Positions 3,223 to 57,764 of a DNA stretch of 64,000 nt are shown piece after piece. Position 1 is the first letter of the stretch, and each line of letters begins with the position of its first letter. The notes beneath the pieces are model-generated. The model ran no database searches, was not told where the DNA came from, and saw only the letters and a program-made list of their open reading frames with translations. Source of the stretch: Candidatus Poribacteria bacterium (lineage in GTDB: Bacteria > Poribacteria > WGA-4E > JAJDTR01); the NCBI GenBank assembly GCA_965222225.1, contig CBDCTK010000002.1, forward strand, positions 2,464,001 to 2,528,000, written 5' to 3'. The position numbers were made by a program, and so were the translations under genes.

Positions 3223-3305
3223 GGGACTTACTATCGCACGCCTTAATCAGTCAGTTGACCGCTCCCTATAGGATCTACTATGGCCCTCGCTGTTCACTCG
3301 GTTGA
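3223..3305 (+). mobile_element. two 36-bp hairpin micro-elements (3223-3258, 3270-3305)
   Basis: Both match the consensus. The second splits the last sense codon of the Kelch gene; removing it gives ...HWE-TAG. Confidence 0.8.
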
Positions 3306-4689
3306 TCCCAATGGATCGTCCCGATTTGCAGGACGTTCTCGGTGTGTGCGTTGTACCCGTGTGTCGGCTCGCCTCCAAAGCCGTAGAGGCGCCCGGTGTG
3401 ATGAATCCAAGGCGCCGTCGCCACGCCGTACGCCAAGACACCGATGCGCGAGTAGTTGTCCTGCTCAATGTAGTAACAGAGGATCATATCCCCGTAGCCG
3501 CGCCACACCGGTGCATCGTTGTTGATAGTCTTTCCCCGGCGGCGGGTACGGACGTCCGCACTGCCCATCAACAGGATGTAGCGTTCGTCAAGAGTGACCG
3601 CGTCGCCGCTGAGCATCGGGAACGGCAGGTTTCGCAATGACGTCCATTCGTCCGTTTCGGGATCGTACCGATAGGCATCGCGGTAGTTCGGCACCCCATT
3701 GTAGGGCACCTCGATGCCATACTTCCCGGGAAGTGTATGCGCCAAAGACCGCAGCACAGGGTCCGGATGCGAACCACCGAACACATACAAACCATCGCCA
3801 GCCGCCCCAAGAGTCACGAGTGCACGGGGACCGCCCGGATAAGGCGCCATCGGTTCCCACTCGGCGCTCGGATCGTCAAGTCGGAGCTTCCAGTCTTGAA
3901 GTTGGGGAGCGTCTCTCGTTTCGGATGGTTTGCCGGCAGGGGTGCCTGCAACCAGACAGAGCCACCTCCCCGAAACGACTCCGCAGCCGGCGAGCCATCT
4001 GCCCGCGGTTTCGGACGATGGCAGCGGAACCAGAGCCGTCCACTTCCAGTCTTCACCATGCCGCGTTAGCTTCCACACCTGTCTCCCGGACCCGCGGCCG
4101 CCCACGACGTACATGCCGGAATCGTCGTAAGTGCCTTGGGTGTATTGGGTCTAAACCGGACAAGGCGGCAGTTCGGTGTATGCATCGGTCTGTGTGTCAT
4201 ACGCGTAGGCAACGTTCAGCCGATCGGGCATCCACATGCCCGCAGCGAGAACGATGGTGTCACCGAAACTGCCTACAACCCCTCCTTTCCACGCTACCGG
4301 CAGGTTGGCGCCGGTTGACCATTCAAGTTTTAGCGGCGGCAGATCGAGGACACCTTCGTATTCGCGGCTGAAGGGGATTCGTTCATAAACCCGATTCAGT
4401 TCACGTCATCGTCGCGCCATTCCGTGGCAGTGGTCTTAGTGTTTCTATGCATAATGAGCTCCTCATTCGCTGATACATCTTGGACATCTTCAATTGCAAT
4501 ACCCTTAGATGGCACTCTAATCTCTCGATTATCGGCGGATAGATCATGAACCTCTAAGGTATCCTGCGCTTGAGCGTACCCGGATATCACGAGACCTATC
4601 AACACAACAAACGTAGTGAGCAACATGGTAAGGGAGATGCGACTTTCTCTCACGGCGTCATCCGATTTCGTGTTTTTCTTGCTTTTCAT
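3266..4689 (-). pseudogene. secreted Kelch-repeat beta-propeller protein, disrupted
   Basis: Kelch repeats (LYVFGG, YRYDPETDEW) continue upstream of 4114 through an in-frame TAG at 4151-4153. A frameshift near 4403 joins this to the signal-peptide ORF 4396-4689. Confidence 0.7.
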
Positions 4690-5545
4690 GAGGCTTTGGA
4701 CGGCTTCGGCCCAAAAGGTTCAGCAGCCGATCGCTGGCAGTTTGCAGTGCATTTTCGGGAACGGGAACGCTATTGCATAAACTAAAGCGCCAGTATGCCC
4801 ATTGGGCGGCGTACTGTGATTGTAAAATATAGCGAGTGTCGTTGGACCGATTGGGCGCTCCTCGGTGCCAGCATTGGGGGTCTTGCAGGTAGATGTCGCC
4901 GGCTTTGCAGAAAACCGACACGGGACCGCGGCCTTCAAACTCCGGGCGGTCTTGATCGTTCGGATTGCGGCCAGAATAATGGCTGCCGGGGACGTATTGC
5001 GTTGGCCCCTGCTCAATTGAGATGATGTCAGTCAGTGCCATCTGGACGGTAAACCACATGACCGGCATCGGAATCCGCGGGTCATGGCGAGGGACGTTGT
5101 CGGGTACAGGAAAATGAACCTGCCCGTCAACATGCCATCGTTCAATTGCCACTCCGGGAAGATTCCGTAGGACATTCTGCCCACAGAACTTGCAGTCTTG
5201 CCCCACCACCGCTTCGGCTATACTAAGAATCGGCTCCCGAAGGAGCATATCCCGAAAGATTGGGTCGAGTTCGATTGTATTTCTCAAAATAAACGGGAGT
5301 TCTTCCTCTGATTCCTCATGTTTTCCCAACTGGATGTATCTCGTGTCGGCGAGTTCCGGATTGGTTCTGTTGAAGAGGGCAGGGTCGGCAAAAAGTTCGT
5401 CGGTTTTGGCGCGTAGGGCGTTGACTTCTTCGGAGGTCAGCACGCCGGGAATGTACGCGAAACCATCACGATACAACTGTTCAACAGCCCCTTGCGTTTT
5501 TTCCTCGCTGAATGGCTCGGCAGAAATGATTGGACTGGTGTTCAT
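4658..5545 (-). CDS. phytanoyl-CoA dioxygenase (PhyH) family Fe(II)/2-oxoglutarate oxygenase
   Basis: YRDGF..IPGVLT, WHVD (HxD), GPTQYVPGSH, WHRGAPNRS. Confidence 0.9.
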   Translation of the reverse strand: MNTSPIISAEPFSEEKTQGAVEQLYRDGFAYIPGVLTSEEVNALRAKTDELFADPALFNRTNPELADTRYIQLGKHEESEEELPFILRNTIELDPIFRDMLLREPILSIAEAVVGQDCKFCGQNVLRNLPGVAIERWHVDGQVHFPVPDNVPRHDPRIPMPVMWFTVQMALTDIISIEQGPTQYVPGSHYSGRNPNDQDRPEFEGRGPVSVFCKAGDIYLQDPQCWHRGAPNRSNDTRYILQSQYAAQWAYWRFSLCNSVPVPENALQTASDRLLNLLGRSRPKPHEKQEKHEIG

Positions 5546-5570
5546 GATCCTCCTTTCTAGATTAATACTA

Positions 5571-5714
5571 ATACCATTGCTTTAGAATGATAGTGCATCA
5601 GTGGGGTGAATTAAAGTCGCGATTCGGAGATCGCTCCTACCAAGTGCTAAACTACGCAAGTCCGAAGAAATTAGTTATTCCATTCTATGCACAATTATTC
5701 AAACGAAATGGTAT
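5571..5714. mobile_element. MITE family A copy
   Basis: ATACCATT...AATGGTAT terminal inverted repeats flanked by TA on both sides; contains a GTAG-type palindrome at 5616-5640. Confidence 0.6.
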
Positions 5715-7307: not shown

Positions 7308-7494
7308 TTTCTATCCTTTCCGTCACGATTGCGGAACGATCTGCCGATAGCGATAAGCTGCATCAGCCGGCGTTGGTTGTTGGCTTCATCGGCTTCTAGT
7401 TTACACCATTTCGTTTGAATAACAGTGCATAGAGTGAAACAACTATTTCGTTAGGACTTGCGCGGTTACGCGGTGTAGCACCCAGTAGGAGCGA

Positions 7495-7551
7495 TCAAGG
7501 GAATGGATAGCGAGTAGGATTTACTATCGCCTTCGCTGTCCGCTCCTTTGA
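7495..7551. mobile_element. 36-bp micro-element (7516-7551, +) next to a half copy (7495-7515, -)
   Basis: Consensus match; sits in a GTAGGAGCGA|TC REP-like sequence. Confidence 0.7.
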
Positions 7552-7766
7552 TCCTTCGCCCGTTCAACATCTCTCTGCTGTTTCGACTTGGTACCGCCGC
7601 AAAGCAACAGAATCGTAGAGGCATATCCTCTTTACGCAACACCTAGCCCGGATTTAGAAGACCATTTTAACCTATACATAACCTCAACCGCAACGGTGTT
7701 ACCAACATCTCCGATTCCATCTCCGCAGTAAACTAACCCGATTCGGAATTCTTGGTTCCTCAAAAC

Positions 7767-7795
7767 TTGACAAACTTTGGATTTCTTGATATAAT
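7767..7795 (+). promoter_or_regulatory. consensus sigma70 promoter of the tRNA pair
   Basis: TTGACA-17 bp-TATAAT, 18 bp upstream of tRNA-Gln. Confidence 0.85.
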
Positions 7796-7813
7796 GAAAT
7801 CAACATGAGATGT

Positions 7814-7887
7814 TGCCCGGTCGTCTAATGGTAGGACGCATGGCTCTGGACCATGTTGCGAAGGTTCGAGTCCTTCCCGGGCAGCCA
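7814..7887 (+). tRNA. tRNA-Gln (CTG)
   Basis: Acceptor stem TGCCCGG/CCGGGCA, anticodon arm CATGG-CT-CTG-GA-CCATG, GGTTCGAGTCC T-arm, encoded CCA. Confidence 0.95.
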
Positions 7888-7891
7888 ATCG

Positions 7892-7963
7892 GGCGCTATC
7901 GTCTAGGGGTTAGGACGGGTGGTTCTCAGCCATCAAACCGGGGTTCGATTCCCCGTAGCGCTA
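7892..7963 (+). tRNA. tRNA-Glu (CTC)
   Basis: Acceptor stem GGCGCTA/TAGCGCT, anticodon arm GGTGG-TT-CTC-AG-CCATC, GGTTCGATTCC T-arm; CCA not encoded. Confidence 0.93.
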
Positions 7964-8213
7964 TTGTCTCTTGTGCGGGTTTGATACTCGACATCTACAA
8001 ATTTGAACGCCCTAAACGGGGTGGATACAGACTAAAAGCACCTAGCTATTCCTAGGTGCTTTTTTTATTGATCGTTTTCTGCTGTCGTCCGGGGTGTTTG
8101 ATGCCAGGGGAAACGCATCTAATTTTTCGGCGAAAATCGCCATATCCCCTATGTCCGCCTCTTGCTCTCTCCATTGTATGTCAGGTCTGGAGCGAGATAG
8201 CGGGAATCTCTAT

Positions 8214-8284
8214 GGGTGTTGTATCAAGATTTACTATCGCCTTCCTTATCCAGTCAGTTGATCCCTCGTTATCCACTCGCTTGA
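8214..8284 (+). mobile_element. nested micro-elements (36-bp copy 8226-8261 inside a 35-bp copy)
   Basis: Removing the inner copy rebuilds a 35-bp consensus-like copy. Confidence 0.75.
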
Positions 8285-8333
8285 TTTCTACAATCAGATG
8301 CGTTTCCCCTGATTTTAACGGTTACATCCCTTG

Positions 8334-8362
8334 TTGACGTCATCAAATAGTCATGATACAAT
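8334..8362 (+). promoter_or_regulatory. sigma70-type promoter with extended -10
   Basis: TTGACG-17 bp-TACAAT, with TGn before the -10 box. Confidence 0.55.
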
Positions 8363-8436
8363 GGGCTTTCGTTAATCGACCAACGCCGCCACAGAAGATG
8401 CCACATTTTCATTCTTGCGTCGAAAGGAGCGTTCTC

Positions 8437-9993
8437 ATGCAAACGCTACGAATTCTCTTCGTTTGTTTACTCCTCGGAATTGGACCGGTGACAGTCATTC
8501 TTGCAAGAGAAGTCAAGATTCTCGACATGGACGGGAAGCTAGGGGATACGTTCGGTTACGTCTCCATTAGCGGGGACACCGCCATCGTTGGGGCAAAGGG
8601 TAACGATGACCCAGTTCAGAATGGTGGTGCGGCCCATATCTTCGTACGCAGCAACGGCGAGGACAATTGGGTACACCATAAAAAACTCGCGCCCCCAGAC
8701 GTTAATAATGAGAGCCAGTTCGGAAAGGCTGTTGGCATCAGCGGAAAGTACGCCATCGGGGGGGCTTTGGAGGACGATTTCAAATTCCAGAATGCGGGCT
8801 CGGCTTATATCTATGAACGTACTGGGAAAAGCTGGCCACAGCGGGAAAAACTCACCGCCAGCGATGCTGCTGGAGGGGACGAATTCGGAACGTCTGTCGC
8901 TATCAGCGGGGACACCGCCATCGTTGGGGCACCGCGGCACGATGGAAATAACGGAAAAGATTCAGGGTCGGTCTATGTTTTCGTAAACATCGGCCGGCGT
9001 TGGAAAGAACAAGCAACCTTTACCGCCAGCGATGTAAGCGCAGGTGACCAGCTCGGAACGTCCGTGGCTATTAGCAGGGACACTGTCATCGTCGGGGCTC
9101 CCGGTAAAGCTGATGCCGGAAGGGAGTCAGGCGCGGCCTATATCTTCGTGCGCAACGGGGAAAAGTGGAATCAGCAGGCAAAACTTACCGCCAGCGATAC
9201 GGCTCAGAGGGACAAATTCGGCATCTCCGTCGCCATCAACAGAAACACCGTCATCGTTGGCGCTCTCGGCAAGGCCGACGCCGGGGCTTCTTCAGGCGCG
9301 GCCTACATCTTCGTGCGCAACGGGGAGAAGTGGAATCAGCAGGCGAAACTTACCGCCGCTGACGGGGCACAACTTGATAAGTTCGGCATCTCCGTCTCAA
9401 TTTTCCATAACACCGCCATCGTTGGGGCTAGTGGGGCAGATGATGGTGAAAAAAATGCTGGCGCAGCGTATTCTTTTCAGCGTACTGGCACATCCTGGGA
9501 GCAGAGGGCAAAGATCGTTCCCAGCGACGCGACAGAAAGTGACCAGTTCGGCATTTCCGTCGCAATTGGGGGGGAATTCGTCATCGTCGGGACTACGGGG
9601 CGTGACACATTTAAGGGCGTGGCATATATCTATCGGTCCATAGAAGATTTTCACCCGGTTGATCCATCTGGGCTGACAGTGACCACGTTGGGACAGGTCA
9701 AGCGGACCGCGCTATATCAAAACTTCCCCAATCCGTTCAATCCCGAGACCTGGTTGCCGTATCGCATAGCTTCCGCTGCACAAGTCACTCTTCGCATCTA
9801 CAATGTCCAGGGGCAGTTTGTCCGTGAGTTGGATCCTGGGCTGCAACAACCGGGAGGGTATTTGAGCAGGGAAACCGCTGCCTATTGGGATGGCACAGAC
9901 CAATTCGGAGACGCCGTTTCCAGTGGTGTCTATTTCTACACGCTCCAAGCCAACACGTTCGAAGCGACCCGGAGAATGGTCATTCTGAAATAG
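8437..9993 (+). CDS. secreted FG-GAP repeat protein with C-terminal FlgD/T9SS-like Ig domain
   Basis: AAAGGAG RBS, signal peptide, about seven FGxSVAISGDTAIVGA repeats, NFPNPFNPETWLPY...SGVYFY tail. Confidence 0.85.
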   Translation: MQTLRILFVCLLLGIGPVTVILAREVKILDMDGKLGDTFGYVSISGDTAIVGAKGNDDPVQNGGAAHIFVRSNGEDNWVHHKKLAPPDVNNESQFGKAVGISGKYAIGGALEDDFKFQNAGSAYIYERTGKSWPQREKLTASDAAGGDEFGTSVAISGDTAIVGAPRHDGNNGKDSGSVYVFVNIGRRWKEQATFTASDVSAGDQLGTSVAISRDTVIVGAPGKADAGRESGAAYIFVRNGEKWNQQAKLTASDTAQRDKFGISVAINRNTVIVGALGKADAGASSGAAYIFVRNGEKWNQQAKLTAADGAQLDKFGISVSIFHNTAIVGASGADDGEKNAGAAYSFQRTGTSWEQRAKIVPSDATESDQFGISVAIGGEFVIVGTTGRDTFKGVAYIYRSIEDFHPVDPSGLTVTTLGQVKRTALYQNFPNPFNPETWLPYRIASAAQVTLRIYNVQGQFVRELDPGLQQPGGYLSRETAAYWDGTDQFGDAVSSGVYFYTLQANTFEATRRMVILK

Positions 9994-10091
9994 TATCAAA
10001 TGACCAGATGATGGCAGGAACACTGACCTAGATTGATTCCAGCCATCACAATTGAACTCGGCGAGCGTTTCCACCATCTAGCCAATGTTAA

Positions 10092-10220
10092 GAGCCTGTT
10101 TGAATAATCCAAATTCGTCTCTGAGAGTTGCCATTTTACGGGTAAATACTTTCAAAATAGCGTGACTTTGCCCATAAAATGACAAGAAATGACAGTCCCA
10201 CCTACTTTTCAACCAGGCTC
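10092..10220. mobile_element. IS5-like MITE
   Basis: GAGCCTGTTTGAA / TTCAACCAGGCTC terminal inverted repeats flanked by TAA on both sides. Confidence 0.55.
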
Positions 10221-10224
10221 TAAA

Positions 10225-10505
10225 CTCGACTTTGTACATTTGAGCGAGGCAACAAACGGTGTCAATTAAGCGTTGAAGAAAAATGAAGAAGATTTTAACC
10301 ATCTGATCTTTTTGGTTAACCATTGAAAAAGTCTCCAGCGGTTGCTGATATTATGCAACCTGTCCGGATTTCTATCGCAGTCACTATGGGATCTTCTATC
10401 GCCTTCGCTATCCACTCAGTTGATCGTTCGCTTGATCCCCGCTGCGGGTTTGGTGCTTCACGGCTTTCCGCTCACCCAACCGTTGTACGTTTGTACAAAG
10501 TCGAG
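10225..10505. mobile_element. MITE with a perfect 14-bp terminal inverted repeat
   Basis: CTCGACTTTGTACA ... TGTACAAAGTCGAG; no transposase ORF. Confidence 0.55.
10365..10435 (+). mobile_element. nested micro-elements (36-bp copy 10388-10423 inside a 35-bp copy)
   Basis: The outer copy rebuilds exactly (CTAT|TCGTTCGCTTGA) with no duplication. Confidence 0.85.
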
Positions 10506-10891
10506 CTAAAGATATTCTGACATTTCAACCGATTTTTCCGAGCGGATTGACACGACTAGATTTTTCTTTTTTTATCGGTTTTCCTCAAATCCAATAGCCT
10601 AAACTCGGGACAAGTCATCGTCTTGCCCCAAAAAGGCGCGTACGGGAGTTGGAGAATCTTATCCCCTAAAAAGTGTCAAGGTGTCTCCACGGCTAAGATC
10701 GATGATTTTGAAGAATCCGAGAATTTGGGATGACTCATGTCTAAGTGATAGGCAAATTGTCAATTTATTATTTCACACTATTCTCCCTCATTGGACGGAG
10801 CCACTAAAGCTTAGGACCTTTCATCTGTTTCGTGGTTGAAAGCATTTTAACTGGCTAAGGACGTACAACAAACCTAATATTTGGAAATGTC

Positions 10892-12268
10892 ATGATTAGA
10901 GCGGACGATTCGATTACGCCGGAATCTTTACTTCCGGATCTCGAGCACTTCTGGACGCTCTCCGGCGCGAAGATTAGGGCCATTGAAGCCAGCTGGAAAC
11001 CGGAGGACGGTTCGCCAGTCTTTACGGTCGAGGGACGCTACACGGCCCAGGGATGGACCGAATGGACACAGGGCTTTCAGTACGGCTCGGCCTTCTTGCA
11101 GTACGACGCCACTGGTGACGAGACATTTCTCGAAATCGGCCGGCGCAAAACCGTCGAGGTGATGGCGACACACGTCTCCCATACCGGCGTACACGATCAC
11201 GGCTTCAACAACGTCAGCACCTACGGGAATCTCCTGCGCCTGATGAACGAGGGTCGCATTTCTGAGAACGCATGGGAACGGAGTTTTTACGAACTAGCGA
11301 CCAAGCTTTCCGGCGCCGTGCAGGCGAGCCGCTGGTCCTGTACCGACGACGGCGGCGGTTACATCTATTCCTTCAACGGGCCGCAGTCGCTTTTTTCGGA
11401 CACCATCCGCTCGCTCCGTGTGCTGGCGCTCGCCCACCGACTGAGACACGTGCTGATGAGTGAGAGGGACGAGCCCGTATCCCTGCTCGGGCGTCTGATT
11501 CAGCATGCCTGTGCCACGGCGCGCTACAACGTTTACTACGGGGAAGGTCGAGACATCTATGACGTGCGCGGCCGCGTGGTGCATGAAAGTTTGTTCAACA
11601 CGAACAACGGAAACTATCGTTCCCCGAGTACCCAGCAAGGGTATTCACCGTTTTCCACCTGGACCCGTGGCTTGGCCTGGATCGTTCTGGCGTATCCCGA
11701 GCAGCTTGAATTCCTGGCGGTACTTGATGACAGTGAGCTCGAGCCATTCGGCGGGCGCGAATCCATCGAGGGCATTATGCTCAAAGCCGCAAAGGCGAGT
11801 GCCGATTTCTACATCGAAAATACGCCGACCGACGGCATCCCCTACTGGGATACGGGCGCGCCGGGCCTCGCTGCAATGGGTGATTATCTTCACCGGCCGG
11901 CAGATCCCTTCAACGAACATGAACCCGTGGACAGTTCGGCGGCAGGCATTGCCAGCCAGGGTCTGATTCGCCTGGGCAGCTTGCTTGAGCGGCGCGGCGA
12001 GACCGATGCGGGACTGCGCTACATCCAGGCAGGCCTCACCGTATTGAAAACGCTGCTCGATGACCCCTATTTAAGCCATTCCGAGGCCCACCAGGGGCTC
12101 ATCCTGCACGCGGTCTATCACCGGCCGAACGGTTGGGACCATGTGCCCCAAGGGCACGTCGTGCCTTCGGGCGAAGCCTGTTTGTGGGGAGACTACCATG
12201 CCCGCGAAGCGGCGCTTTACGTTCAACGAATGGCGAAAGGGCTGCCCGATTACAAATTTTTCGGTTGA
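10892..12268 (+). CDS. GH88-like unsaturated glucuronyl hydrolase
   Basis: WTQGFQYG, HDHGF, QQGYS..STWTRGLAW, DSSAAGIA, WGDY. Confidence 0.8.
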   Translation: MIRADDSITPESLLPDLEHFWTLSGAKIRAIEASWKPEDGSPVFTVEGRYTAQGWTEWTQGFQYGSAFLQYDATGDETFLEIGRRKTVEVMATHVSHTGVHDHGFNNVSTYGNLLRLMNEGRISENAWERSFYELATKLSGAVQASRWSCTDDGGGYIYSFNGPQSLFSDTIRSLRVLALAHRLRHVLMSERDEPVSLLGRLIQHACATARYNVYYGEGRDIYDVRGRVVHESLFNTNNGNYRSPSTQQGYSPFSTWTRGLAWIVLAYPEQLEFLAVLDDSELEPFGGRESIEGIMLKAAKASADFYIENTPTDGIPYWDTGAPGLAAMGDYLHRPADPFNEHEPVDSSAAGIASQGLIRLGSLLERRGETDAGLRYIQAGLTVLKTLLDDPYLSHSEAHQGLILHAVYHRPNGWDHVPQGHVVPSGEACLWGDYHAREAALYVQRMAKGLPDYKFFG

Positions 12269-12291
12269 GGGAAATTTGAAAAGGTTTCCAA

Positions 12292-13761
12292 GTGAGCCAA
12301 AAACAGAGCTTTCGGCGTATCGCGTCGTTCAAGACGATTGACAATTTCCGCGAGCACCTTGAGCATCTTGGTCTGGAGTTGCCGACGGATGATGCGATCC
12401 TCACAGGCGATGATTCGCCGCTTTTAAAGCCAATCCGGTTCGGAGAACGCACGATTTGCAACCGTTGGTGCGTCCAGCCTATGGAGGGCTGGGACGGCAC
12501 GACCACTGGCGGCGTGACCGATTCCATGACCCGGCGGTGGCAGCGCTTCGGCATGAGCGGAGCCAAACTCATCTGGGGCGGCGAGGCAATGGCAGTACGG
12601 CCGGATGGCAGCGCGAATCCCAACCAACTCATCATCAACAAGACAAATCAGGCCGGCATCGCCTCGCTCCGGGAAGCGCTCCTGAGCTCGCATCGCAAGC
12701 GCTACGGAAACACCGACAATCTCCTGATCGGTTTCCAACTGACACATTCGGGTCGCTTCTCACGCCCGAAAAACGAGAAAACGCTCAATCCGCCCATTGC
12801 TTACAGGCACCCCCTTTTGGATCAGAAGTTCAGCATCACGAGCGATGCCGCTGTTTTGAGCGATGACGACATCAAACGACTAATCGACGACTATATCGCG
12901 GCGGCCGGCACGGCTTACGGCGCCGGCGCGGATTTTGTGGACATCAAGCATTGCCACGGTTATCTCCTGCACGAATTCCTGGGCGCCCACACGCGGCCGG
13001 GACCTTACGGTGGATCATTTGAAAACCGGACTCGCATTCTCCGCGAGGTTGTTGAGGGAATACGTGCTCAAGTGCCAGAGTTGGAGATTGCCGTCCGCTT
13101 GAGCACATTCGACTTTGTCCCCTTCAAGCCGCATCCCGACCATAGCACCGCGACCAAGCTCGGTCCGGGAATTCCCGAGGCCTATGACGACATCTTACCG
13201 TATCGCTATGCCTTTGGCGTGAATCCCGATGACCCCATCACTTACGACCTCGACGAACCGGAACACTTGCTCGCCCTGATCGAGTCGCTGGGGATACAGT
13301 TGGTCAATCTCTCGGCGGGTAGTCCCTACTATAATCCGCACATCCAGCGGCCGGCGCTTTTTCCCCCGAGCGACGGTTACCAGCCGCCTGAGGATCCACT
13401 GGTCGGAGTCGCACGCCAGATTCATGTGGTCAAGGCGCTCAAGGCCCGATTTCCGAATCTGATCCTGGTGGGTTCGGGCTACACGTATCTGCAGGAATAC
13501 CTCCCGCACGTGTCGCAGGCTGTGGTGCGCGCAGGCTGGGTGGACTCGGTGGGATTGGGGCGCGTGATGCTTTCCTATCCGGAGATCCTGGCCGATGCCA
13601 CCGATACCGGCGCGATTGACAAGCGGCGTATCTGCCGGACTTTTAGTGATTGCACCACGGCGCCGCGCAACGGGCTTCCGAGCGGCTGCTACCCGTTCGA
13701 CGATTACTACAAGTACAACGAAGATGCCAAGCGGCTCAAAGAGATCAAAAAGACGTTTTAG
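12292..13761 (+). CDS. NADH:flavin oxidoreductase (old yellow enzyme family)
   Basis: [32 protein letters not shown]. Confidence 0.9.
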
Positions 13762-13773
13762 CGGAGGTGTAAG

Positions 13774-14556
13774 TTGGCGAACACCCTCAACCGTGTGGCC
13801 CTGATCACCGGCGGAACGCGCGGCATCGGCCTGGGCATTGCCAAAGTTCTGGCTACGGACGGCTACTATCTTGCCTTAAACGGCGTCCGTGATGAAGCCA
13901 GGGTCAAGCCGGTATTGGAGGAACTCGAAGGTCTTGGCGTCAAGGTCGTGTACGTTCAGGGTGATATTGGCGAGACTAACGATCGCGAGACGATTCTAGA
14001 CGGTGTTCAAAAGTGTTTCGGCCGCCTGGACGTCCTGGTCAACAATGCCGGCGTTGCACCGGCTATCCGCGCGGACATTTTGGAGGCCGACGAGTTAAGC
14101 TTCAACGAACTCATGCGCGTCAACTGCGGTGGGCCGTTTTTTCTCACCCAAGCGGCTGCCCGATGGATGATCGAGCAGAAAGAAAAGGACGCCACGTATG
14201 CGGGCGTGATTGTCTTCGTGACGTCGATCTCGGCTGCGGTGGCCTCAATCAACCGCGGCGATTACTGCATGAGCAAAGCAGCGCTCAGCATGGCGGCGCG
14301 TCTTTGGGCCATTCGCCTGGCGAATCACGGCATTCCAGTCTATGAACTGCGCCCGGGAATCATCAAAACGGACATGACCGCCGACGTGAAGGAAAAGTAC
14401 GACCGCCTGATTGCCGAAGGGCTTACATTGGAACCCCGCTGGGGGTGCCCCGAGGACATCGGTCGCGCCGTCGCCGCGCTCGGGCGCGGCGATCTGCCCT
14501 ATGCCACTGGGCAGGTAATCGTACAGGACGGGGGCTTGACGGTGAGTAGATTGTGA
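13774..14556 (+). CDS. short-chain dehydrogenase/reductase (3-ketoacyl-ACP reductase-like)
   Basis: TGGTRGIG, NNAG, YCMSK. Confidence 0.92.
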   Translation: MANTLNRVALITGGTRGIGLGIAKVLATDGYYLALNGVRDEARVKPVLEELEGLGVKVVYVQGDIGETNDRETILDGVQKCFGRLDVLVNNAGVAPAIRADILEADELSFNELMRVNCGGPFFLTQAAARWMIEQKEKDATYAGVIVFVTSISAAVASINRGDYCMSKAALSMAARLWAIRLANHGIPVYELRPGIIKTDMTADVKEKYDRLIAEGLTLEPRWGCPEDIGRAVAALGRGDLPYATGQVIVQDGGLTVSRL

Positions 14557-17069: not shown

Positions 17070-17371
17070 AGCGTGAGTTCACAAGTTCACGGGCTCATTC
17101 GCGCATCACGTTTCACACAGTAAGGAAATCTAATATTCTGTAAATGCAACTCAGGACCCCCCTACTGGTCTATCAAGTCGATGAGTGTATGCTCTTGTTG
17201 GTTGGCGTTTTACGACGCCACAACGGTTGTCGAAGCGGGTGCGGTAGAAGCCATAGAGCGAATTCCTTTCTTTAGGACAACAGCCGTCTCCTCACCCATT
17301 CTGCAATTCTATAGTCATTGCAATTAATAATTACACATCCTTGCGGGTAATAACATTCTTCTGTACCACAA

Positions 17372-17406
17372 GAGATCTCTATCGCACTCGCTATTCACTC
17401 GCTTGA
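17372..17406 (+). mobile_element. 35-bp micro-element
   Basis: GAGATCTCTATCGCACTCGCTATTCACTCGCTTGA followed by TC. Confidence 0.8.
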
Positions 17407-17732
17407 TCTGTTAGATTGTGGCATGCGCAAACTAACAGTTTGCGCTACGCGGAAGCGTTCGATTCTGTGGGTAATTAGATTCTTCTGTACCACAATTATA
17501 TAACCAATCTATCTATGTGCGAACACTCTCAATTTTTGCATGTCTTAGTGCATATCGTCATCGTTCATTAACATACAATCATAATATGTGTAAATATGAA
17601 TGTAAATGACTAAAAGTTTGGAATCGACACTTTCCTTTTGTGATGTAACGGGTTAGAATCTTCAATGTTCGTCAAAGTTTGATTTCGCCGACATTCATGC
17701 CGAAATTGCCCCTGATAGAGAGGAATCTTTCC

Positions 17733-37510: not shown

Positions 37511-37549
37511 CGCTTTTTCCCCTAAATCCGCGTAATCTGTTTAATCCGA

Positions 37550-37620
37550 TCAACCGACTGAATAAGGAGTAAGATTTCCTATCGCCTTTCCTATTCGGTC
37601 AGTTGATCGATAGAGATCCC
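37550..37620. mobile_element. nested micro-elements (36-bp + copy 37571-37606 inside a 35-bp - copy)
   Basis: Outer 21 + 14 bp halves rebuild GGGATCTCTATCGAACTCCTTATTCAGTCGGTTGA. Confidence 0.85.
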
Positions 37621-47795: not shown

Positions 47796-48035
47796 TGTTG
47801 TGTCAGTGTTATCCAGACCGTATTGAGTTCAGGGCTGCGATTTCGCATACCGTGCCTGATTCCCGATTGCGTTCATCAAGAACTATACCACCGATGGTCA
47901 CAAGTATCATTCTGCAAGGAGCTCATCAATGAAACAAGTGAGTGGTGAATGGTTAGTGGGCTTTTTCATCCGCTACTCACCGCTCGACCACTCACTTGTC
48001 ATCAAAAGGCTCCATTTACCGCTGTTTAAGGAATA

Positions 48036-48207
48036 ATACCATTTCTTTAGATTCGCAGTGCATTATAGGCATCAATCAAGTCTCTCCAATGCGGGGCAAG
48101 AGGATCTCTATCGCATTCGCTATTCGCTCATTTGATTCCCGCCTACGGAGAATGTGAAGAATATAACCGATACATCATAATGCACTATTATTCAAGCGAA
48201 ATGGAAT
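48036..48207. mobile_element. MITE family A copy carrying a 35-bp micro-element (48101-48135)
   Basis: ATACCATTTC...GAAATGGAAT ends; the micro-element splits the internal palindrome. Confidence 0.65.
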
Positions 48208-48238
48208 AACCATCAGTATCAAAACACCTGCCAATGGC

Positions 48239-49471: not shown

Positions 49472-49518
49472 AAAAAAGGCGTCTCCGAAGAAGCAATCAA
49501 ACTCCTTCAAAGACGCCT
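49472..49518 (-). terminator. intrinsic terminator-like hairpin
   Basis: AAGGCGTCT...AGACGCC stem followed by T6 on the minus strand. Confidence 0.55.
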
Positions 49519-50456
49519 TATTGACGCGGTCACAAAAAATTCCCTTCGGGGCGAAACTCTCCTGCTCCGAACATTCGGTGGTGGTAGAGAGTTTTGGAAT
49601 TTTTCTAAATGAACTAGATTAGGAGACCATAAAGCCATTTTTCCTCCGGAAAGAACTTTAGGTCATTATACAATCAAGAGATTCGGGCGTTATACATCTT
49701 TTCAGATTCCTTGTCGATCAATTAAAATCGCTAAATCAGTCATTTTCGGCTTTTCAGAGCTAGATGTGGAATGCTGTAACGGCTCGGTATCGGAAGAGCT
49801 CAAAGTCGCGAAATCCAGAGGCCTTGCCGGATCGGGACAGGGCGGCGTTTGATGAGGTTGATTTTATTGTTGATGCCTTCGGCGATGCCGCTGGTCGTGC
49901 GGTGACAATAGTAATTGGCGATTTGGTCAATCCAGTTTGCTAGCGTCCAGCGGAAATTCGAACAGAGTCCCGCTTTCTCAGCTACGAAGGACCACTTCCG
50001 CAGCCACTCGATTGCCTTCTCTTTCGTCAAATTGCACTCAACGATATGCTGCAGACAGTCATTGAGTCAATGAGCCGTCTTGACCAGAGGAGACACCTGA
50101 TAAACGTGTTCCCCGATAGATCGGGGGCTGCTTTTCGGTTAGTCGTCCTGGTTCTTTTGCTGATTCTTTAACTGCTTGAGTTCCCGGTTGACCGCCTGCA
50201 TCACATGAAACCGGTCGGCGGTAATCGTCGCCTAGGGCAACAACTCGGCACACACAGTATCATAGGGACTCCACATGTCGATGACGACTTCTTGAATCTG
50301 TGCGCGCTCGAAAGCCGATAGCTGTTCAAGTCGCGCCCTGAGTTTCTCTTGGGTTCTCGCTTTGAGGAAATCGACGACTTCTTTCATGTCCAGATTCGTC
50401 AGAATCAAGGCGAAGTCCCCTTTTCCCTTCCGCAACGCAATTTCATCAATACCCAA

Positions 50457-50528
50457 CGGAGTCTCTATCGATTAACCGACCGAATAGGGAGGGCAATAGA
50501 TAATCCTGCTCGCTATCCGCTCGGTTGA
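50457..50528. mobile_element. nested micro-elements (36-bp - copy 50472-50507 inside a 36-bp + copy)
   Basis: Removing all 72 bp restores ISL3 LKR|LGIDE. Confidence 0.85.
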
Positions 50529-50813
50529 ACGTTTGAGATTGGCAACGGGGGTTAAGGGGATGCGACATCTCGTTTCGTGGAGGGAGATGCTTTCAATCTG
50601 GCCATAAGTCAACCCTTCAGTGCTGGGTACCGCGCTGATGTTGTTCTCTCGAACTTGGTGGAATATCCAATCTTGGTAACGATGGGTGTAATCGCGTCGC
50701 TCGTCGACAAAGCCGAAGGATTCGGAGAAGGCACCTTCGCAGTCTTCACGGAAGAATCGACGGAAATTAGTCAGCTTGCCACAGTGAGAGCATACCGCCG
50801 TCTGAGATGCCGA

Positions 50814-50849
50814 TCAACTGACTGAATAAGGAAGGCGATAGCAAATCCT
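50814..50849 (-). mobile_element. 36-bp micro-element in the ISL3 remnant
   Basis: Reverse complement AGGATTTGCTATCGCCTTCCTTATTCAGTCAGTTGA followed by TC. Confidence 0.8.
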
Positions 50850-51001
50850 GATAGAGATCCCTTCACTGTCCCATGAAATCCTATCTAGACCAACCTCGGC
50901 AGAAACTACCTGGTAGTTGGGAATGTCGATTCGTTGAATTATAGTCATTGTGATTAAGAATTACACATATGGGATTTACTTGGTTCGGTTTGTAGTAGCA
51001 A

Positions 51002-51036
51002 TCAAGGGAGCGAATAGCGACTGCGATAGAGATCCC
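51002..51036 (-). mobile_element. 35-bp micro-element
   Basis: Reverse complement GGGATCTCTATCGCAGTCGCTATTCGCTCCCTTGA. Confidence 0.8.
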
Positions 51037-51116
51037 TTGTGCTACAAAGGTATGACTTGCCCCATCCCTAAAGGTGTTTCAGAGGCTTTGTAACAACCAG
51101 TAATTCTGATAATGCT

Positions 51117-52193
51117 CTATAGTAATTTTGAGAATCCTTCTTTTACTGTTGCCTTAGTCGTAAGGTCAACAAATATGAAGTTTTTGCACAAGGGTTTAAA
51201 AAGTGGAACTTCGTCAATAAATTTTCTGTGCCACTTATCCCCAGATACAAATGTAATACCCTTGTGATACGTATAAAGCAAGTATTCAGCATCTCTAAGG
51301 ACGTTTTGGGGCGCTGCATTTTCGGAATTCTCACGAAGGTAGAGCTGAATTGTGTAAATCCATATCGCTGCTCTGAGTGCGTATGGTGCGAATCTATTGA
51401 TAGGCGGCATATCTTCCTTCAGAAACCTGTTAAAGATCTGGGTATGTTCTTCTGGCGTAAGTATAGGATCGAATAGCCTACCTAGCCGCTGTAATTTATC
51501 ATATGCAGCACTGCGATCGCTCGAATCATGGTTGAGTAGGCTTGCAGCTACTTGATTTGCGTTTTCCAGAGAATCTGCCTTATATGTATCAAAGAGTGTT
51601 TTGATGGATGTTTGGAAGAGTTGTTTGCCTTCCCGCAGAAAGCCTTCGGTTTCTACTTTTTTTAGAATGCGTTCTATCTCTGGATAATACGTTTGGTTTG
51701 CTCTCAGGACCTCTTTTAACCTGTTCACCCACTCTTTTTCAGAAAGATTGTCTGTATTTTTAAACAAACCCAACAATCCTTCTTTCAACGGATTGATTAT
51801 AGAGTCCAGATTTCTATAAAACTCTTCGCTTTCTTTCAGCATCTCTATGGTTTCACTTGAAGCTTCCTTGAACTCCAAAAGTTCTTGTTCCGAGCATTCG
51901 CGAACTGACTTCATTGCGTTTGCACTTCCGATAGGTAAGGGTTTAGCGGATTCCTCTGTAAGCAAGTCCATTTTTGCGTATTCCGACCAATGGGGAATCC
52001 AGATGATATTTTCTAGATTGAGGAGAGCATTATGCCTTTTTAGCCCATGTCTAGCAACTTCAGTGAATAGGATTGATGGACAAAGGATTGTGTATCTGGA
52101 AACTAATGCCTCACGTTGTTCACGATCTAAGGACATCCAAAATGATTTGTCCGGTAGCAAGAGGTTGCTCTGATTGTTCATCGTCATGTGCAT
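51117..52193 (-). CDS. AT-rich hypothetical protein, possibly a PIN-like fold with a large helical insertion
   Basis: N-terminal LLPDKSF and C-terminal RDAEYL...FVSGDK acidic motifs. Confidence 0.5.
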   Translation of the reverse strand: MHMTMNNQSNLLLPDKSFWMSLDREQREALVSRYTILCPSILFTEVARHGLKRHNALLNLENIIWIPHWSEYAKMDLLTEESAKPLPIGSANAMKSVRECSEQELLEFKEASSETIEMLKESEEFYRNLDSIINPLKEGLLGLFKNTDNLSEKEWVNRLKEVLRANQTYYPEIERILKKVETEGFLREGKQLFQTSIKTLFDTYKADSLENANQVAASLLNHDSSDRSAAYDKLQRLGRLFDPILTPEEHTQIFNRFLKEDMPPINRFAPYALRAAIWIYTIQLYLRENSENAAPQNVLRDAEYLLYTYHKGITFVSGDKWHRKFIDEVPLFKPLCKNFIFVDLTTKATVKEGFSKLL

Positions 52194-52214
52194 CTCCGTT
52201 TATTTGACTCCGTT

Positions 52215-52415
52215 CTAATTTGCTTCGGCATCCTCCCCCTCCCTTTTGTCCTGTTCAGCAAACAGTGCATCCGCAATTTCCGTGAGCGCCTCATCTGTTA
52301 TAGGTGAGAAATTCAACAGAGCCACCTGCTTTATGATTTCAGAGGTTATCGCATGTTTTTCAATCCGAGGGAGTTGGTTGAATGCTTCCAATATGTTTTG
52401 TGGGGTTGCGTGCAC
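52215..52415 (-). CDS. small acidic antitoxin-like protein
   Basis: 66 aa, GGAGG RBS, ILEAFNQLP...TDEALTEIADALF. Confidence 0.5.
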   Translation of the reverse strand: MHATPQNILEAFNQLPRIEKHAITSEIIKQVALLNFSPITDEALTEIADALFAEQDKREGEDAEAN

Positions 52416-53038
52416 TGGGACCTCCGTGTAGCAAGAGCGTAAAGTTTATGCGAATTATACACGATGCCTTGACGAAATTTAAGGTTTCTCTACATTCCAA
52501 TAGAGCCATCTAATTTTTGGTTCCCTGTCGGTGGTCTAGTGTGAGTCGCGATTCAGCGACCGCGCCGAAGGTTCAACCGATTTAACTTCACCATTAAGTC
52601 AAATTATGGCTAAGAAGTCGCGACCTAGAGCTCGCTCCTACAGAGGACGGGAAATGAACTGCGATACTACAAACCGCACAACGTAAGCCCCGAACGTATA
52701 ATTCTTAGTTTCAATGACTATAGAAATGTACTGCCATCGGAAATTTAGACCATTATCTTAAACAAGATTATGATACAATTTCCAATCGGATTGAAAGGAG
52801 ATTCCGATGGCTAAACGAAGGAAATTCACGCCCCAATTTAAGGCTGAAATTGCTATTGAAGCACTTACCGGTCAAAGTTCACAAGCGGAACTTTGTCGGC
52901 GGCATAACCTCAGCCAAGAGCAACTATCAAAGTGGAAACACCAACTTCTTGACAACGCGGCGACTCTCTTTGAATCCACTGACAAGCAATCTAACGACCA
53001 TAGGGAACGGATTGCTCAACTGGAGCAACTCGTTGGGA

Positions 53039-53073
53039 TCAAACGAACGAATAGTGAGTGCGATAGAGATCCC
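53039..53073 (-). mobile_element. 35-bp micro-element in IS3 orfA
   Basis: Removing it restores LEQLVGILSLALDIQKKASTLLN-stop. Confidence 0.9.
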
Positions 53074-53457
53074 TATTGAGCTTGGCGTTAGACATCCAAA
53101 AAAAAGCCTCGACTTTGCTCAATTGAATTGGTCTCAAAAACGACAGATGGTTGAAGCTTTGCACACCGATTACCCGGTTCGACACATTTGTGATGTACTC
53201 GGCTTCAATCGGAGCAGTCTGTATTATCAACCGAGGCACGACCCCATTGAACTTGAGCTACGAGACGAAATTGAGAAACTGGCAGCCCGTTATCCGAAAT
53301 ATGGCTATAGGCGTATCACCCAGCTACTGTTGCGAATGGGGTACTCTGTCGGTTATCGACGCGTTGCTCGATTGATGAAAGCAGAGAATCTTTCGGCAGC
53401 CGTAAAACGTACTTGTCAAACTACCAAATCGTTTGACGGCTGCGGTCAATGGGGGAA

Positions 53458-53492
53458 GGGAACTCTATCGCCCTCCTTATTCAGTCGGTTGA
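53458..53492 (+). mobile_element. 35-bp micro-element in IS3 orfB
   Basis: Removing it restores GQWGNRLENLDI and joins ORFs 52850-53593 and 53449-53997. Confidence 0.9.
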
Positions 53493-54071
53493 TCGGCTTG
53501 AGAACCTTGACATCTGTCGTCGAAATCAGGTTTGGGTCGGTGATATTACCTATGTCCGACTCAAAGAGCAATTCGTCTATGTTTCGGTGTTAATGGACGT
53601 GTTCACCCGAATGATAAGAGGTTGGCGACTGAGTCGGCACTTGACAGAACCTCTCACATTGAGACCGTTGCAACAGGCATTAAGCCAAAGCGTTCCGGAA
53701 ATTCACCATAGTGACCAAGGGGTTCAGTACCTTTCGAACGCTTATATCTCCACTCTCATTGGTCATGGAGTTGAGATTTCCTTAGCTCATAGGGGGCGTC
53801 CTTGGGAGAACGGTTATGCCGAAAGGCTTATCCGAACCCTCAAGGAAGAAGAAGTCCACCTCAACGAATACAATGATATAATGGATGCCAGAGAGCGAGT
53901 CGGTCATTTTATTGTAAAAGTCTATAACCAGAAACGATCTCACTCGGCGTTAGGCTATTTGACGCCGGTTGAATTTGAGCAACAATACTTGTCTTAACTT
54001 TGCTTATTTGTGGTCTAAATTAGCGTTGGCACTTCAAAAAGATTATGACGCGTTCCGCGAAGCAGTAGAAG

Positions 54072-56010: not shown

Positions 56011-56210
56011 AATTGACCCCGATCATTTCTATGAAGTCCGGCTGCGAGGATTGTCTTCTTTGTAATTCCTGTAGCGCCCATTCACCCACGAATGTGCATA
56101 GTACCCTGATTTTGATGTGGCAAAATTCTGGATGAAAGGGTTTTGCAGAAAAAATCGCGGTAAAGTTTTTATGCCGAATTGTATCTACCTGAAATCGGGA
56201 GATGGTATTT

Positions 56211-57601
56211 ATGCCTAAAACAGATGCGCACCCCAATTTGCTTATCATAATGGCCGATCAGCATGCGCCCATGTTCAGCGGTCCGTACGGACATTCTGTG
56301 GTTCGAACCCCCCTATGGATAGATTGGCGTCAGAGGGGGTTGTCTTCGATGCTGCCTATTGCAACTCGCCTCTTTGCGTCCCGTCGCGAATGTCGTTCAT
56401 GACAGGACGTCACATTCAGCACATCGGAATCTGGGACAACGGCGTGCCGCTTGCCGTGGAGGCGGCGACTTGGGCGCACGCGGTGAGGACGCAGGGCTAT
56501 GATGCCGTTCTCGCAGGCAAGCAGCATTTCAGAGGTCCCGACCGGCTCCACGGCTTTCGTGCGCAGATCTCGCCGGACATTAATGCCGAAAACAAGCCGA
56601 TGATTCCGGACTGGTCGCAGGAACTCCAGAACCGCGCGCCTATCAGGGAGATACGCACGGGGGCCGGGTTGAGCGAGGAGGTGGTGGCAGATGACGAGGT
56701 GGAAGCCGCCGCATTAGCCTATCTGCGTCATCCGGATCGCCAATCGGGGTCCTGGGCACTGAACGTCGGGTTTGTGGCGCCGCACCCGCCCTGGACTGTT
56801 CCGCGGCGATTCTTCGATATGTACCCACCGGATGAGGTGGATATGCCGGTGATTCCGCCGGGTCACCTTGAGGGGCAACACCCTGTCCACCAACGAATGC
56901 GGCGATGGCGAGGTCTACCGGAGGGACCGCTTCCGAAGGAAGCGGTTCGCCGCGCGCGCTCTGCTTACTACGGCTTGGTGACCTATCTGGACGAGAAGGT
57001 TGGCAGGCTGCTCGACGCCTTGGATGAGACAGGGCTGCGCGAGCGCACAGTGGTAGTTTACACAAGCGACCACGGCGAATTGTTGGGTGAACACGGGATG
57101 TGGTATAAATGCAGTTTGTATGAGCAGTCTGTCCGCATCCCCCTGATTATTTCATGGCCTGGCAATCTGCCCCGTCGCCGCGTGAAGAAGCCCGTCTCAT
57201 CGGTCGACCTGTCGGCGACAATTGTGGAACTTGCCGGTTCGCCGCGGCTGGACTGGATGGACGGTGACAGCCTACTGAGCCTGGCGAAGGGAGAATCGCG
57301 GGGATGGAAGAACGAGGCAATCTCTGAATACCATGCGATTGGTGTGACTCGGCCGCTGGCTATGATTCGGCAGGGTCGGTTCAAGCTCAATTACAGCCTC
57401 GGCGAACGCGCCGAGCTTTACGACCTCCAAGATGATCTGGGTGAATTCAACGACCTGGGTGAGAATCCTGCCTATGGGGACATTCGTGAGACACTGGAGA
57501 CGCGGCTGCTATCTCAATGGAATCCCAACCGGCTGGATGAGGAGGTTCGGCAAAGCCAGCGCGAGCGCCGACTGATTTTCGATTTCTTGTTTGATTGGTG
57601 A
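56211..57601 (+). CDS. choline-sulfatase-like S1 sulfatase with a frameshift near the N-terminus
   Basis: PNLLIIMADQH and CVPSRMSFMTG are in different frames; the shift is at the C6 run 56308-56313. Confidence 0.8.
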
Positions 57602-57712
57602 AGATTTTGTCCTGATTGCCGCCTTCAGGATTTCGGACGGCGCCGACCGATTTTCCCGGATGCGTGGGCTTGGATTGCACCGAAGATCGAGTTGTGCGGT
57701 TTGTAGTAGTGA

Positions 57713-57764
57713 TCGCCCCAGTGGATAGCGAAGGTGATAGAAGATCTCAGTGCGATAGCGATTT
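57713..57764 (-). mobile_element. degenerate 36-bp micro-element (57713-57748) plus an adjacent half copy
   Basis: Reverse complement GAGATCTTCTATCACCTTCGCTATCCACTGGGGCGA followed by TC. Confidence 0.65.

Follow-up and report, generated by a model that had tools for sequence, protein, structure and literature searches.

A 35- to 36-nt single-hairpin repeat of Candidatus Poribacteria with the properties of a non-autonomous mobile element

Small mobile repeats, such as repetitive extragenic palindromes (REPs) and the small dispersed repeats (SDRs) of cyanobacteria, are common, yet the movement of their single units is poorly understood. Here, we describe a repeat of 35 to 36 nt from a stretch of 64,000 nt of Candidatus Poribacteria bacterium (GCA_965222225.1, CBDCTK010000002.1:2,464,001-2,528,000), referred to as the window; coordinates are those of the window unless prefixed by a contig. 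The genome of the window comprises 5.70 Mb in two contigs with ~50% G+C. The repeat had been noticed in an original prediction made from the letters of the window, and a limited literature search returned no publication on such repeats in Poribacteria. It is a REP/SDR-like single-hairpin mobile unit, whose mobility, strand specificity, target rule, and fast turnover are documented below.

REPs and the tyrosine transposases associated with them (RAYTs), together with cyanobacterial SDRs, had been proposed as the closest analogues, and the comparison is apt. As described in parts of the cited papers, REPs measure 21 to 65 nt (PMC6006769) and show compensatory stem changes (PMC3116915; PMC2817692), a canonical REP carries a GT[AG]G tetranucleotide 5′ to the hairpin foot (PMC6006769), and a rayt gene bracketed by a pair of inverted REP copies is a feature of REP/RAYT systems (PMC2817692). 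The present element resembles REPs and REP doublets forming hairpins (REPINs) in being a short hairpin repeat of high copy number between genes, in its lineage-specific families, and in its single-stranded DNA (ssDNA) logic; its genome also has Y1 genes and other canonical-looking REP families. It differs in lacking GT[AG]G: the foot is flanked by TCAA and GCGATAG on the bottom strand (CTATCGC and TTGA on the top), and the absence of a GTAG end already remarked upon extends to GTGG in the sequence logo. Further differences are that inverted copies do not consistently flank any Y1 gene, that the stem is thermodynamically weak, with only 2 + 2 variable pairs enclosing a conserved tandem G.A, and that positions turn over between sister species. 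Whereas a doublet is the proposed REPIN unit, this element inserts singly, and neighbors ≤120 nt apart are in the same orientation in 264 cases and in opposite orientation in 64.

To our knowledge, the SDRs of Nostoc have been without a known mechanism since 2008. Those described by Elhai et al. in 2008 are reportedly nested units with hairpin potential and conserved flanks, and are said to measure 21 to 27 nt, compared to 35 to 36 nt here. Likenesses to the SDRs of Nostocaceae are the very small non-coding unit, precise insertion at a short site, entry into other repeats, and the lack of a known transposase. SDR5 inserts between the third and fourth bases of GCGATCGC, according to a portion of PMC4390886, and the counterpart of that site in our element is a hot spot in its own GCGATAG. 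The part of PMC5861425 that bears on this question reports no SDR-like repeat outside Nostocaceae among cyanobacteria rich in the palindrome HIP1; our element differs from SDRs in belonging to another phylum and in its unrelated sequence.

Three other classes are less close. Insertion sequences (ISs) of the IS200/IS605 family end in a subterminal hairpin with mismatches, as stated in a section of PMC6006769, and share with the element the absence of target duplication, a short fixed flank on one strand, orientation specificity, and a link to replication. Here, however, there are no separate left and right ends but one hairpin that fills the element, a dinucleotide is all that is fixed in the flank, and the genome has no TnpB-type match; insertion is precise beside TC/GA and linked to skew, but GC targets read TC and the strand bias runs opposite to that of IS608. 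MITEs (miniature inverted-repeat transposable elements) are likewise non-autonomous, intergenic, and multicopy, but the element lacks notable terminal inverted repeats and target-site duplication and is several times shorter. In the attC sites of integrons, stems are conserved in structure rather than sequence, one strand folds, and unpaired features are conserved. The element has the same structure-conserved stem, single folding strand, and conserved unpaired features; it is much shorter and is found neither at cassette ends nor in gene arrays.

Consensus, folding, and distribution of the repeat

The core spans 28 nt (CTATCGC-NN-TC-NN-TATYC-NN-TC-NN-TTGA) and is matched 13 times in the window at ≤3 mismatches, compared to 0.00 matches expected from 100 shuffles, so the consensus first proposed was correct. 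At ≤4 mismatches, 17 matches were obtained, the additions being 7495(-), 37550(-), 50501(+), and 57713(-). Most coordinates of the original prediction also stand, although its count of 18 complete copies does not: 13 are clean, 37550 and 57713 are degenerate with 4 mismatches, and 8214, 10365, and 50457 are incomplete, each representing the 5′ part of a host copy interrupted by a nested copy. The sequence at 7495, taken for half a copy, scores as a 4-mismatch copy. Both orientations and both the 35- and 36-nt classes were recovered, and no two of the 13 window cores are identical, as had been claimed. What had been overlooked is the self-nesting of copies and the pairing of the NN positions.

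A scan of the whole genome, suggested earlier along with that of related genomes, returned 1092 core matches at ≤3 mismatches, 537 of them exact, with three matches on the 63-kb contig. The 1028 genome copies with ≤2 core mismatches were used for the logo and for most counts given here. In the logo, the near-invariant core is preceded by a moderately conserved leader (GGRATYT) at positions -6 to 0, and information content falls steeply beyond positions -6 to +30; after TTGA, the 3′ flank is T in 96% and C in 89% of copies, followed by a drop in information. The top strand is laid out as a variable leader of 7 to 8 nt (GGGATCT or RGGATTTN) and then the core, the 35- and 36-nt classes corresponding to leaders of 7 and 8 nt, respectively. 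The bottom strand is G/A-rich and reads 5′-TCAA NN GA NN GRATA NN GA NN GCGATAG ARATCCC-3′. Distinct 37-mers make up 891 of the 1028 copies, and the commonest 37-mer is seen 19 times.

The eight N positions constitute four covarying Watson-Crick pairs, with mutual information of 1.18 (12:20), 0.97 (9:23), 0.78 (8:24), and 0.44 bits (13:19) and with G:C, C:G, and A:T as the alternatives. The element is therefore a covarying hairpin, contrary to the initial view that it had no structure beyond its consensus. Two variable helices of 2 bp flank a conserved tandem G.A on the bottom strand (TC/TC on the top), and the loop is GRATA. Among 111 distinct copies from the closest species, 94.3% of cells were paired on the bottom strand, compared to 76.3% in shuffles, and double-change cells numbered 170 versus 37.5; slid controls showed 20 to 48% pairing.

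The two strands are not equivalent in this respect. All four Watson-Crick pairs are present in 531 of the 1028 copies. Three such pairs plus one top-strand A.C, which corresponds to a bottom-strand G.T wobble, are found in 289, while three plus one top-strand G.T are found in only 28; in the closest species, bottom-strand wobble cells number 162 against 24 top-strand G.T cells. With RNA nearest-neighbor parameters, the covarying structure averages -4.2 kcal/mol on the bottom strand versus +1.2 kcal/mol on the top, and the bottom strand scores better in 1027 of 1028 copies. Only the bottom strand tolerates wobble pairs and it scores better; it is thus the predicted folding strand. The wobble asymmetry would also follow from a strand-specific bias toward C-to-T mutation in exposed bottom-strand DNA, and both readings alike imply a single-stranded state of the bottom strand.

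Outside this genome, a pattern scan of species representatives gave, among the matches listed (at least 101 stretches), only metagenome-assembled genomes of Candidatus Poribacteria. A cyanobacterial origin of the DNA was rejected, as T9SS and sulfatase genes pointed elsewhere. We then have a survey of 176 genomes of the phylum (core at ≤1 mismatch), in which a reversed-pattern control matched nowhere and high copy number was confined to two genera: 604 to 1309 copies were present in 10/10 genomes of the window's genus and 207 to 216 copies in 4/4 genomes of a second genus, which belongs to another family. Low numbers, from 1 to 19 copies, were seen in seven genomes of other genera (G066, G146, G010, G125, G060, G065, and G124) and could reflect low-level transfer, relics, or bin contamination. 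No copy at ≤1 mismatch was detected in 155 of the 176 genomes, and a scan of viral contigs with the element pattern gave 0 matches.

Read data bear on the reality of the element, as the original prediction had raised the concern of adapter or assembly chimeras. The stretch 7450-17440 is present in 20 sequencing runs from 9 studies. Logan contigs of 4 runs (4 studies) stop at element copies, and word depth in the 334-nt bins that contain copies 10389 and 17372 is ~40 to 85 times that of adjacent single-copy bins. These observations argue against an assembly or adapter artifact, and the element is genuine. No empty allele was seen in these contigs, a kind of data unable to show absence.

Insertion, nesting, and turnover

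A direct view of insertion is provided by a broken IS3-type transposase gene (52727-54040), which is split into two open reading frames (ORFs; HTH_21 and rve) and contains two element copies. Its paralog at G000:C2:4078620-4079931 is ~90% identical outside two insertion gaps and 84% identical over the whole BLAST alignment. The copy at 53458 has an empty counterpart in the paralog: between ..CAA and TC.., the window sequence is longer by precisely 35 nt, and no base is duplicated or lost. Both paralogs share the copy at 53037, and in that of G000:C2 a further 36-nt copy sits exactly in its loop. A comparison of orthologous filled and empty sites, also advised earlier, identified one site in a small palindrome loop (GTAGAGAATAACGA to the left and TTGTTATTTTCTAC to the right) that is empty in the closest species and filled in this genome. 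This pair and the IS3 pair confirm that there is no target duplication. A strict search for orthologous empty sites by two high-scoring segment pairs yielded 0 pairs (31 spanning and 103 without usable flanks); orthologous sites were then compared by anchor-based alignment, where 1 of 8 short gaps aligned gave a clean junction.

Paralogous empty sites were found for 95 of the 1028 copies (283 pairs), 38 with both flanks at ≥85% identity. In addition, excision restores a host copy with ≤2 mismatches for 230 of the 1028 copies, all of distinct sequence; nested copies mostly share the orientation of their host. These nested events concentrate at hot spots: CTAT^CG^C with 76 events, CGCAC^TC with 27, an inverted class at the same GCGATAG with 22, the loop TAT^TC and CTT^CG^CTATCC with 17 each, and head-to-tail TTGA^GGGA with 10. 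Together, the data show that insertion favors loops and feet of other hairpin repeats as well as the element's own copies. Head-to-tail arrays also occur: of the two arrays at G005:C1:174705-174912 and L066:18294-18531, one has a period of 36 and six identical units, and the other has a period of 35, with at least 6 listed copies at 35- or 70-nt spacing.

Turnover was assessed by comparing this genome with 800 kb of the closest species (genes 84 to 99% identical), which gave 142 colinear gaps. These gaps hold 72 copies here and 53 in the closest species, of which four aligned at the same place and one had the same sequence. The element thus multiplies within genomes and turns over fast. It behaves as a mobile element on the grounds of filled and empty pairs, empty sites, nesting, the few shared positions, and an orientation linked to skew (see below). 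The proposal of a non-autonomous mobile micro-element is well supported by the IS3 pairs, the 95 empty sites, the 230 nested copies, and the turnover between sisters, and we consider it very probable that the element is a non-autonomous mobile single-hairpin DNA unit of 35 to 36 nt.

The 3′ junction is sharp. TC follows TTGA in 899 of the 1028 copies; for the closest species, the count is 252 of 302. This bears out the earlier remark that TTGA is followed by T and mostly by TC. Units land in a single orientation, just 5′ of a top-strand TC or, on the opposite strand, just 3′ of the GA; in bottom-strand terms, the rule is ..G(A)^ and then TCAA...GCGATAG-ARATCCC. At TC targets, events are exact, as in the IS3 pair and nesting classes 9^10, 16^17, and 28^29. 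GC, CGC, or TGC targets with a TC product and a loss of 1 to 3 target bases are seen in the element's own CTATCGC, in the REP foot CCTGT^CG^CCCC, and in the palindrome GCGCAG^TG^CGCACC, and in the ortholog pair a TT target became TC in the filled site. No single cut-and-ligate parse accommodated all junctions; three parses fit different event classes, that is, a unit ending in TTGA before TC, one ending in TTGAT before C, and TTGATC replacing 2 to 3 bases.

Orientation was evaluated against GC skew computed with element copies masked, using 50-kb bins in this genome. Bins with skew >0 contain 340 plus and 197 minus copies, and bins with skew ≤0 contain 207 plus and 471 minus copies (Spearman rho 0.57 to 0.64, p <1e-6). 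This link survives the collapse of clusters (199/112 versus 119/278) and exceeds the bias of long ORFs. In the closest species, 2.4 Mb divided into 24 blocks of 100 kb gave 112/76 versus 68/103 (rho 0.54, p 0.007). If positive GC skew marks the leading strand here, as it does in most bacteria, the C-rich top strand would lie on the leading strand and the folding bottom strand on the lagging strand. Along the 5.64-Mb contig G000:C2, GC skew flips sign many times, without two clean replichores, which suggests rearrangements or misjoins.

Mechanisms of movement and the search for an enzyme

With 35 to 36 nt and no coding capacity, the element must rely on any enzyme in trans. The whole explanation that we put forward, at slightly less than an even chance, is a mobile single-hairpin element that moves as ssDNA through a trans-acting Y1 enzyme. 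The element would move or be copied as ssDNA at the replication fork; the catalyst would be a trans-acting HUH (Y1, IS200/RAYT-type) nuclease-ligase, of which the genome has five loci; and copies that keep the hairpin would multiply, giving rise to compensatory stem changes. As set out in parts of PMC6006769, HUH Y1 enzymes act on ssDNA hairpins at the lagging-strand template, and some Y1 subclasses have atypical REPs with no GT[AG]G and weak structure. The mechanism with the best precedent, and the one we infer, is that a trans-acting Y1 enzyme handles the element as ssDNA; the specific assignment of the catalyst to the Y1 class is somewhat less likely than not.

A number of observations weigh against this explanation, beginning with the enzyme itself. 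The original prediction held that it is not encoded in the window; in our searches, none was identified anywhere in the genome either, and no Y1, reverse transcriptase (RT), or TnpB gene tracks the element. Of the five Y1 (HUH) loci in this genome, C2:3080258-3080728 (157 aa with HUH and Y motifs) reaches 65.8 bits as an IS200/IS605 transposase, above the cut-off of 55, and another reaches 104 bits as a RAYT (cut-off 80). The former was rejected as the cognate gene, as its own REP is different (CTATA[CG]ACCT[GT]TCGCCCC-NNN-GGGGC) and the inverted 36-mers that flank it are insertions into that REP. When ~20 homologs were compared, the 36-mer was present in the REP in some species and not in others, and homologs occur in 7/7 searched genomes of a genus in which those genomes do not have the element. 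The RAYT-type gene is a pseudogene in this genome. Its family has no match at E 1e-15 in 3/10 genomes of the genus and is not consistently flanked, 15 of 22 loci having no exact element copy within 1.5 kb. A Y1 remnant, C2:3560268-3560498, has copies on both sides, but no copy lies within 1.5 kb of its full-length homologs in 5 congeners.

The remaining adverse points concern junctions, folding, and strand. In ~100 nested events, the target is GC or CGC; the product is always TC, and 1 to 3 target bases are missing. The 5′ leader varies in length and sequence (GGGATCT, RGGATTTN, and GGGAACT in the window's genus; we guess that a leader ..RAAGA belongs to the second genus). Folding with DNA parameters does not recover the hairpin, giving ~-1 kcal/mol and no improvement over shuffles in 6/8 folds. 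Any structure therefore probably needs the tandem G.A pairs, a pairing familiar from general nucleic acid chemistry, or a protein. In the first 800 kb of the closest species alone, there is no skew correlation (61/61 versus 20/25). Finally, IS608 and ISDra2 insert into and excise from the lagging-strand template (PMC6006769, in the part consulted), while most copies of the element have their folding strand on the C-rich strand, presumably the lagging one, a polarity opposite to that of IS608. The missing cognate gene, the imprecise GC-target events, and this reversed polarity weaken the Y1 mechanism.

Other candidate genes were surveyed as well. Y1 loci 2 to 4 were set aside, being unflanked and having patchy orthologs in the second genus (2/4, weak; 3/4, one truncated; and 2/4, only one close). 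Genes of the C2:3080258-3080728 type accompanied by their own REP are found in many Poribacteria genomes (loci L077-L106) and resemble a classic REPtron, although in several congeners the gene has stop codons or a frameshift; a second Y1 gene subfamily is associated with a GCTCC/GGAGC variant of that REP. The distribution of RVT_1 matches (6/9 congeners and 2/4 genomes of the second genus) does not follow that of the element. The sole RVT_1 match in this genome is weak and lies in a 679-aa ORF (G000:C2:4499563-4501599) immediately downstream of an ORF that resembles a type I restriction helicase. The 679-aa ORF has the look of a defense-island RT, and similar ORFs of 628 to 695 aa occur in five congeners. 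The genome gave no match to a TnpB-type gene. A search for Y2 genes gave no match, and since control genomes were equally without a match, it is uninformative on Y2. When all crude ORFs were screened, 30 had inverted copies on both sides, and among these the Y1 gene accounted for above was the only plausible enzyme.

Template-directed copying is the strongest of the alternatives, although on balance we regard it as unlikely. A free bottom-strand 3′ end, such as that of an Okazaki fragment with terminal ..GA or ..G, would anneal to a top-sense ...TTGATC-3′; an RNA or ssDNA template would then be copied in a target-primed, replicative manner and rejoined with small target losses. It would account for one sharp and one fuzzy junction and for the constant GA of the flank, seen with targets that had GA, G alone, or neither one: events at GA targets are precise, G-only targets gain an A, and at the orthologous site AATAAC^AA became AATAAC-GA-TCAA, while 1 to 3 target bases are lost on the other side. 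It also fits the preference of the bottom strand for the presumed lagging strand, the very high copy number, and the head-to-tail arrays of periods 36 and 35. The missing gene, the GC-target events, and the polarity are better explained by templated lagging-strand copying than by a Y1 enzyme; however, no polymerase or template has been identified for it. No RT tracks the element, no template molecule was observed, and array units abut as TTGA followed by GGGA without TC, which a linear template ending in ..TC-3′ does not predict.

Passenger spread, in which most copies are carried by larger repeats (REPs, MITE-like units, or ISs) or by recombination between them, is improbable as the general explanation, although it makes a real contribution. 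At least one adjacent 40-nt flank is repeated 3 or more times elsewhere for 703 of the 1028 copies, and identical composites, such as a REP with the same insert, recur in the genome; many copies therefore hitch-hike. The 19 occurrences of the commonest 37-mer, the 53037 copy common to two IS3 copies, and the 48101 copy within a ~190-bp stretch missing from the closest species point in the same direction. Against this stand solo insertions of 35 to 36 nt in unique sequence, the large majority of distinct 37-mers, and the 230 nested events, which involve the 35- to 36-nt unit alone. Overall, hitch-hiking contributes copies but cannot be the primary mode.

In relation to genes, 149 of the 1028 copies lie within crude ORFs, though crude ORFs cover 81% of the genome, so that the description of copies as confined to intergenic DNA, repeats, and dead IS genes was broadly right. 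Tandem gene gaps hold 317 antisense and 276 sense copies, an orientation that is random relative to genes, and convergent, divergent, and tandem gaps hold copies roughly in proportion to gap length. No Rfam family matched the element in the window: a gathering scan gave only two tRNAs, and a permissive scan of 50300-53700 gave only chance-level matches. We conclude that the element is not a gene-expression signal and has no tie to transcription. A motif selected in place by the host (a protein-binding site, an RNA stability or termination element, or an uptake signal) would be in keeping with the strong exclusion from ORFs and with a conserved core and maintained pairing in two genera, but is very improbable given the random orientation and similar density in all gap types, positions that are not conserved between sister species, copies inside dead IS genes and one another, and the absence of an Rfam family and of any copy in most genomes of the phylum.

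Copies in the window, their surroundings, and significance

Table 1. Element copies and remnants of copies in the window
Position	Strand	Description	Basis
3224..3260	+	Copy, 2 core mismatches	Core match
3271..3307	+	Copy, 2 mismatches	Core match
7493..7529	-	Degenerate copy, 4 mismatches; head-to-head with copy at 7517	Core match
7517..7553	+	Copy, 1 mismatch	Core match
8199..8226	+	5′ remnants of a host copy, or of two such copies (GGGAATCTCTAT, GGGTGTTGTATC), interrupted by copy at 8227	Host junction class, core position 5/6
after 8263	+	Host remainder of 8199..8226 resumes	Sequence
8227..8263	+	Exact-core copy, nested in host copy	Core match, nesting class
10365..10388	+	5′ half of host copy cut in loop (TAT^)	Host junction class 16; 3′ half at 10424-10440
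10389..10425	+	Exact-core copy, sitting in loop of host copy	Core match, nesting class
17372..17408	+	Exact-core copy; short-read contigs of 4 runs stop here, word depth up ~40-fold or more	
37548..37584	-	Degenerate or split copy, 4 mismatches; inverted relative to copy at 37572	
37572..37608	+	Copy, 1 mismatch	Core match
48101..48137	+	Exact-core copy within ~190-bp stretch (roughly 48006-48204) missing at orthologous site of closest species	
50470..50506	-	Copy, 2 mismatches; 5′ fragment of + strand copy ahead at 50457-50471	
50494..50530	+	Degenerate copy, 4 mismatches; new relative to earlier list	
50812..50848	-	Exact-core copy, then tail of another copy (GATAGAGATCCC) at 50850	
51000..51036	-	Exact-core copy	Core match
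53037..53073	-	Exact-core copy in broken IS3-type transposase gene; also in paralog, there with nested 36-nt copy in loop	
53458..53494	+	Exact-core copy in broken IS3-type gene of 53037 copy; not in paralog, precise +35 nt at AA^TC	
57711..57747	-	Degenerate copy, 4 mismatches, in 308-nt intergenic region	

The copies listed in Table 1 have varied surroundings. Two neighboring tRNA genes (7814-7884 and 7892-7963) are bracketed by two element copies, and short-read contigs from other samples show small indels at 7887-7891. The ~190-bp stretch at 48006-48204 has inverted ends (CCATTTC..GTGCATTAT), a possible GGAATAA duplication, and the 36-mer at its center; many copies of it, 80 to 93% identical, are present across the genus, so it appears MITE-like. 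The segment 49757-50762 is IS-like, with 10 to 14 copies at 75 to 76% identity listed in each of two congeners. The intergenic region 57601-57910 measures 308 nt here, is of similar length in two congeners, and is 22 to 55 nt in five others; stacked small repeats, a GTAG-type unit (TTGTAGGAGCGATCTCC..GTCGCGAC) among them, make up the extra DNA.

The element provides an unusually clean data set, comprising 14 high-copy genomes versus 162 with low or no copy number, hundreds of nested insertions, a strand-specific fold, and a link to replication, and therefore makes both an enzyme search and a test of ssDNA movement versus templated copying directly feasible. A more far-reaching reading, which we consider somewhat unlikely, is that of a minimal replicator of 35 to 36 nt served by no known transposase class, in which a single G.A-zippered hairpin strand would spread at the fork through priming or strand transfer, or else through an enzyme not yet described that two Poribacteria genera have in common. 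If true, the unexplained behavior of the Nostoc SDRs would have an independent second example, here with ~14 genomes in which the machinery could be traced by phyletic profiling. In practical terms, the element accounts for the breaking of short-read assemblies of sponge symbionts every few kilobases, and its activity means that the intergenic regions of these symbionts are rapidly remodeled.

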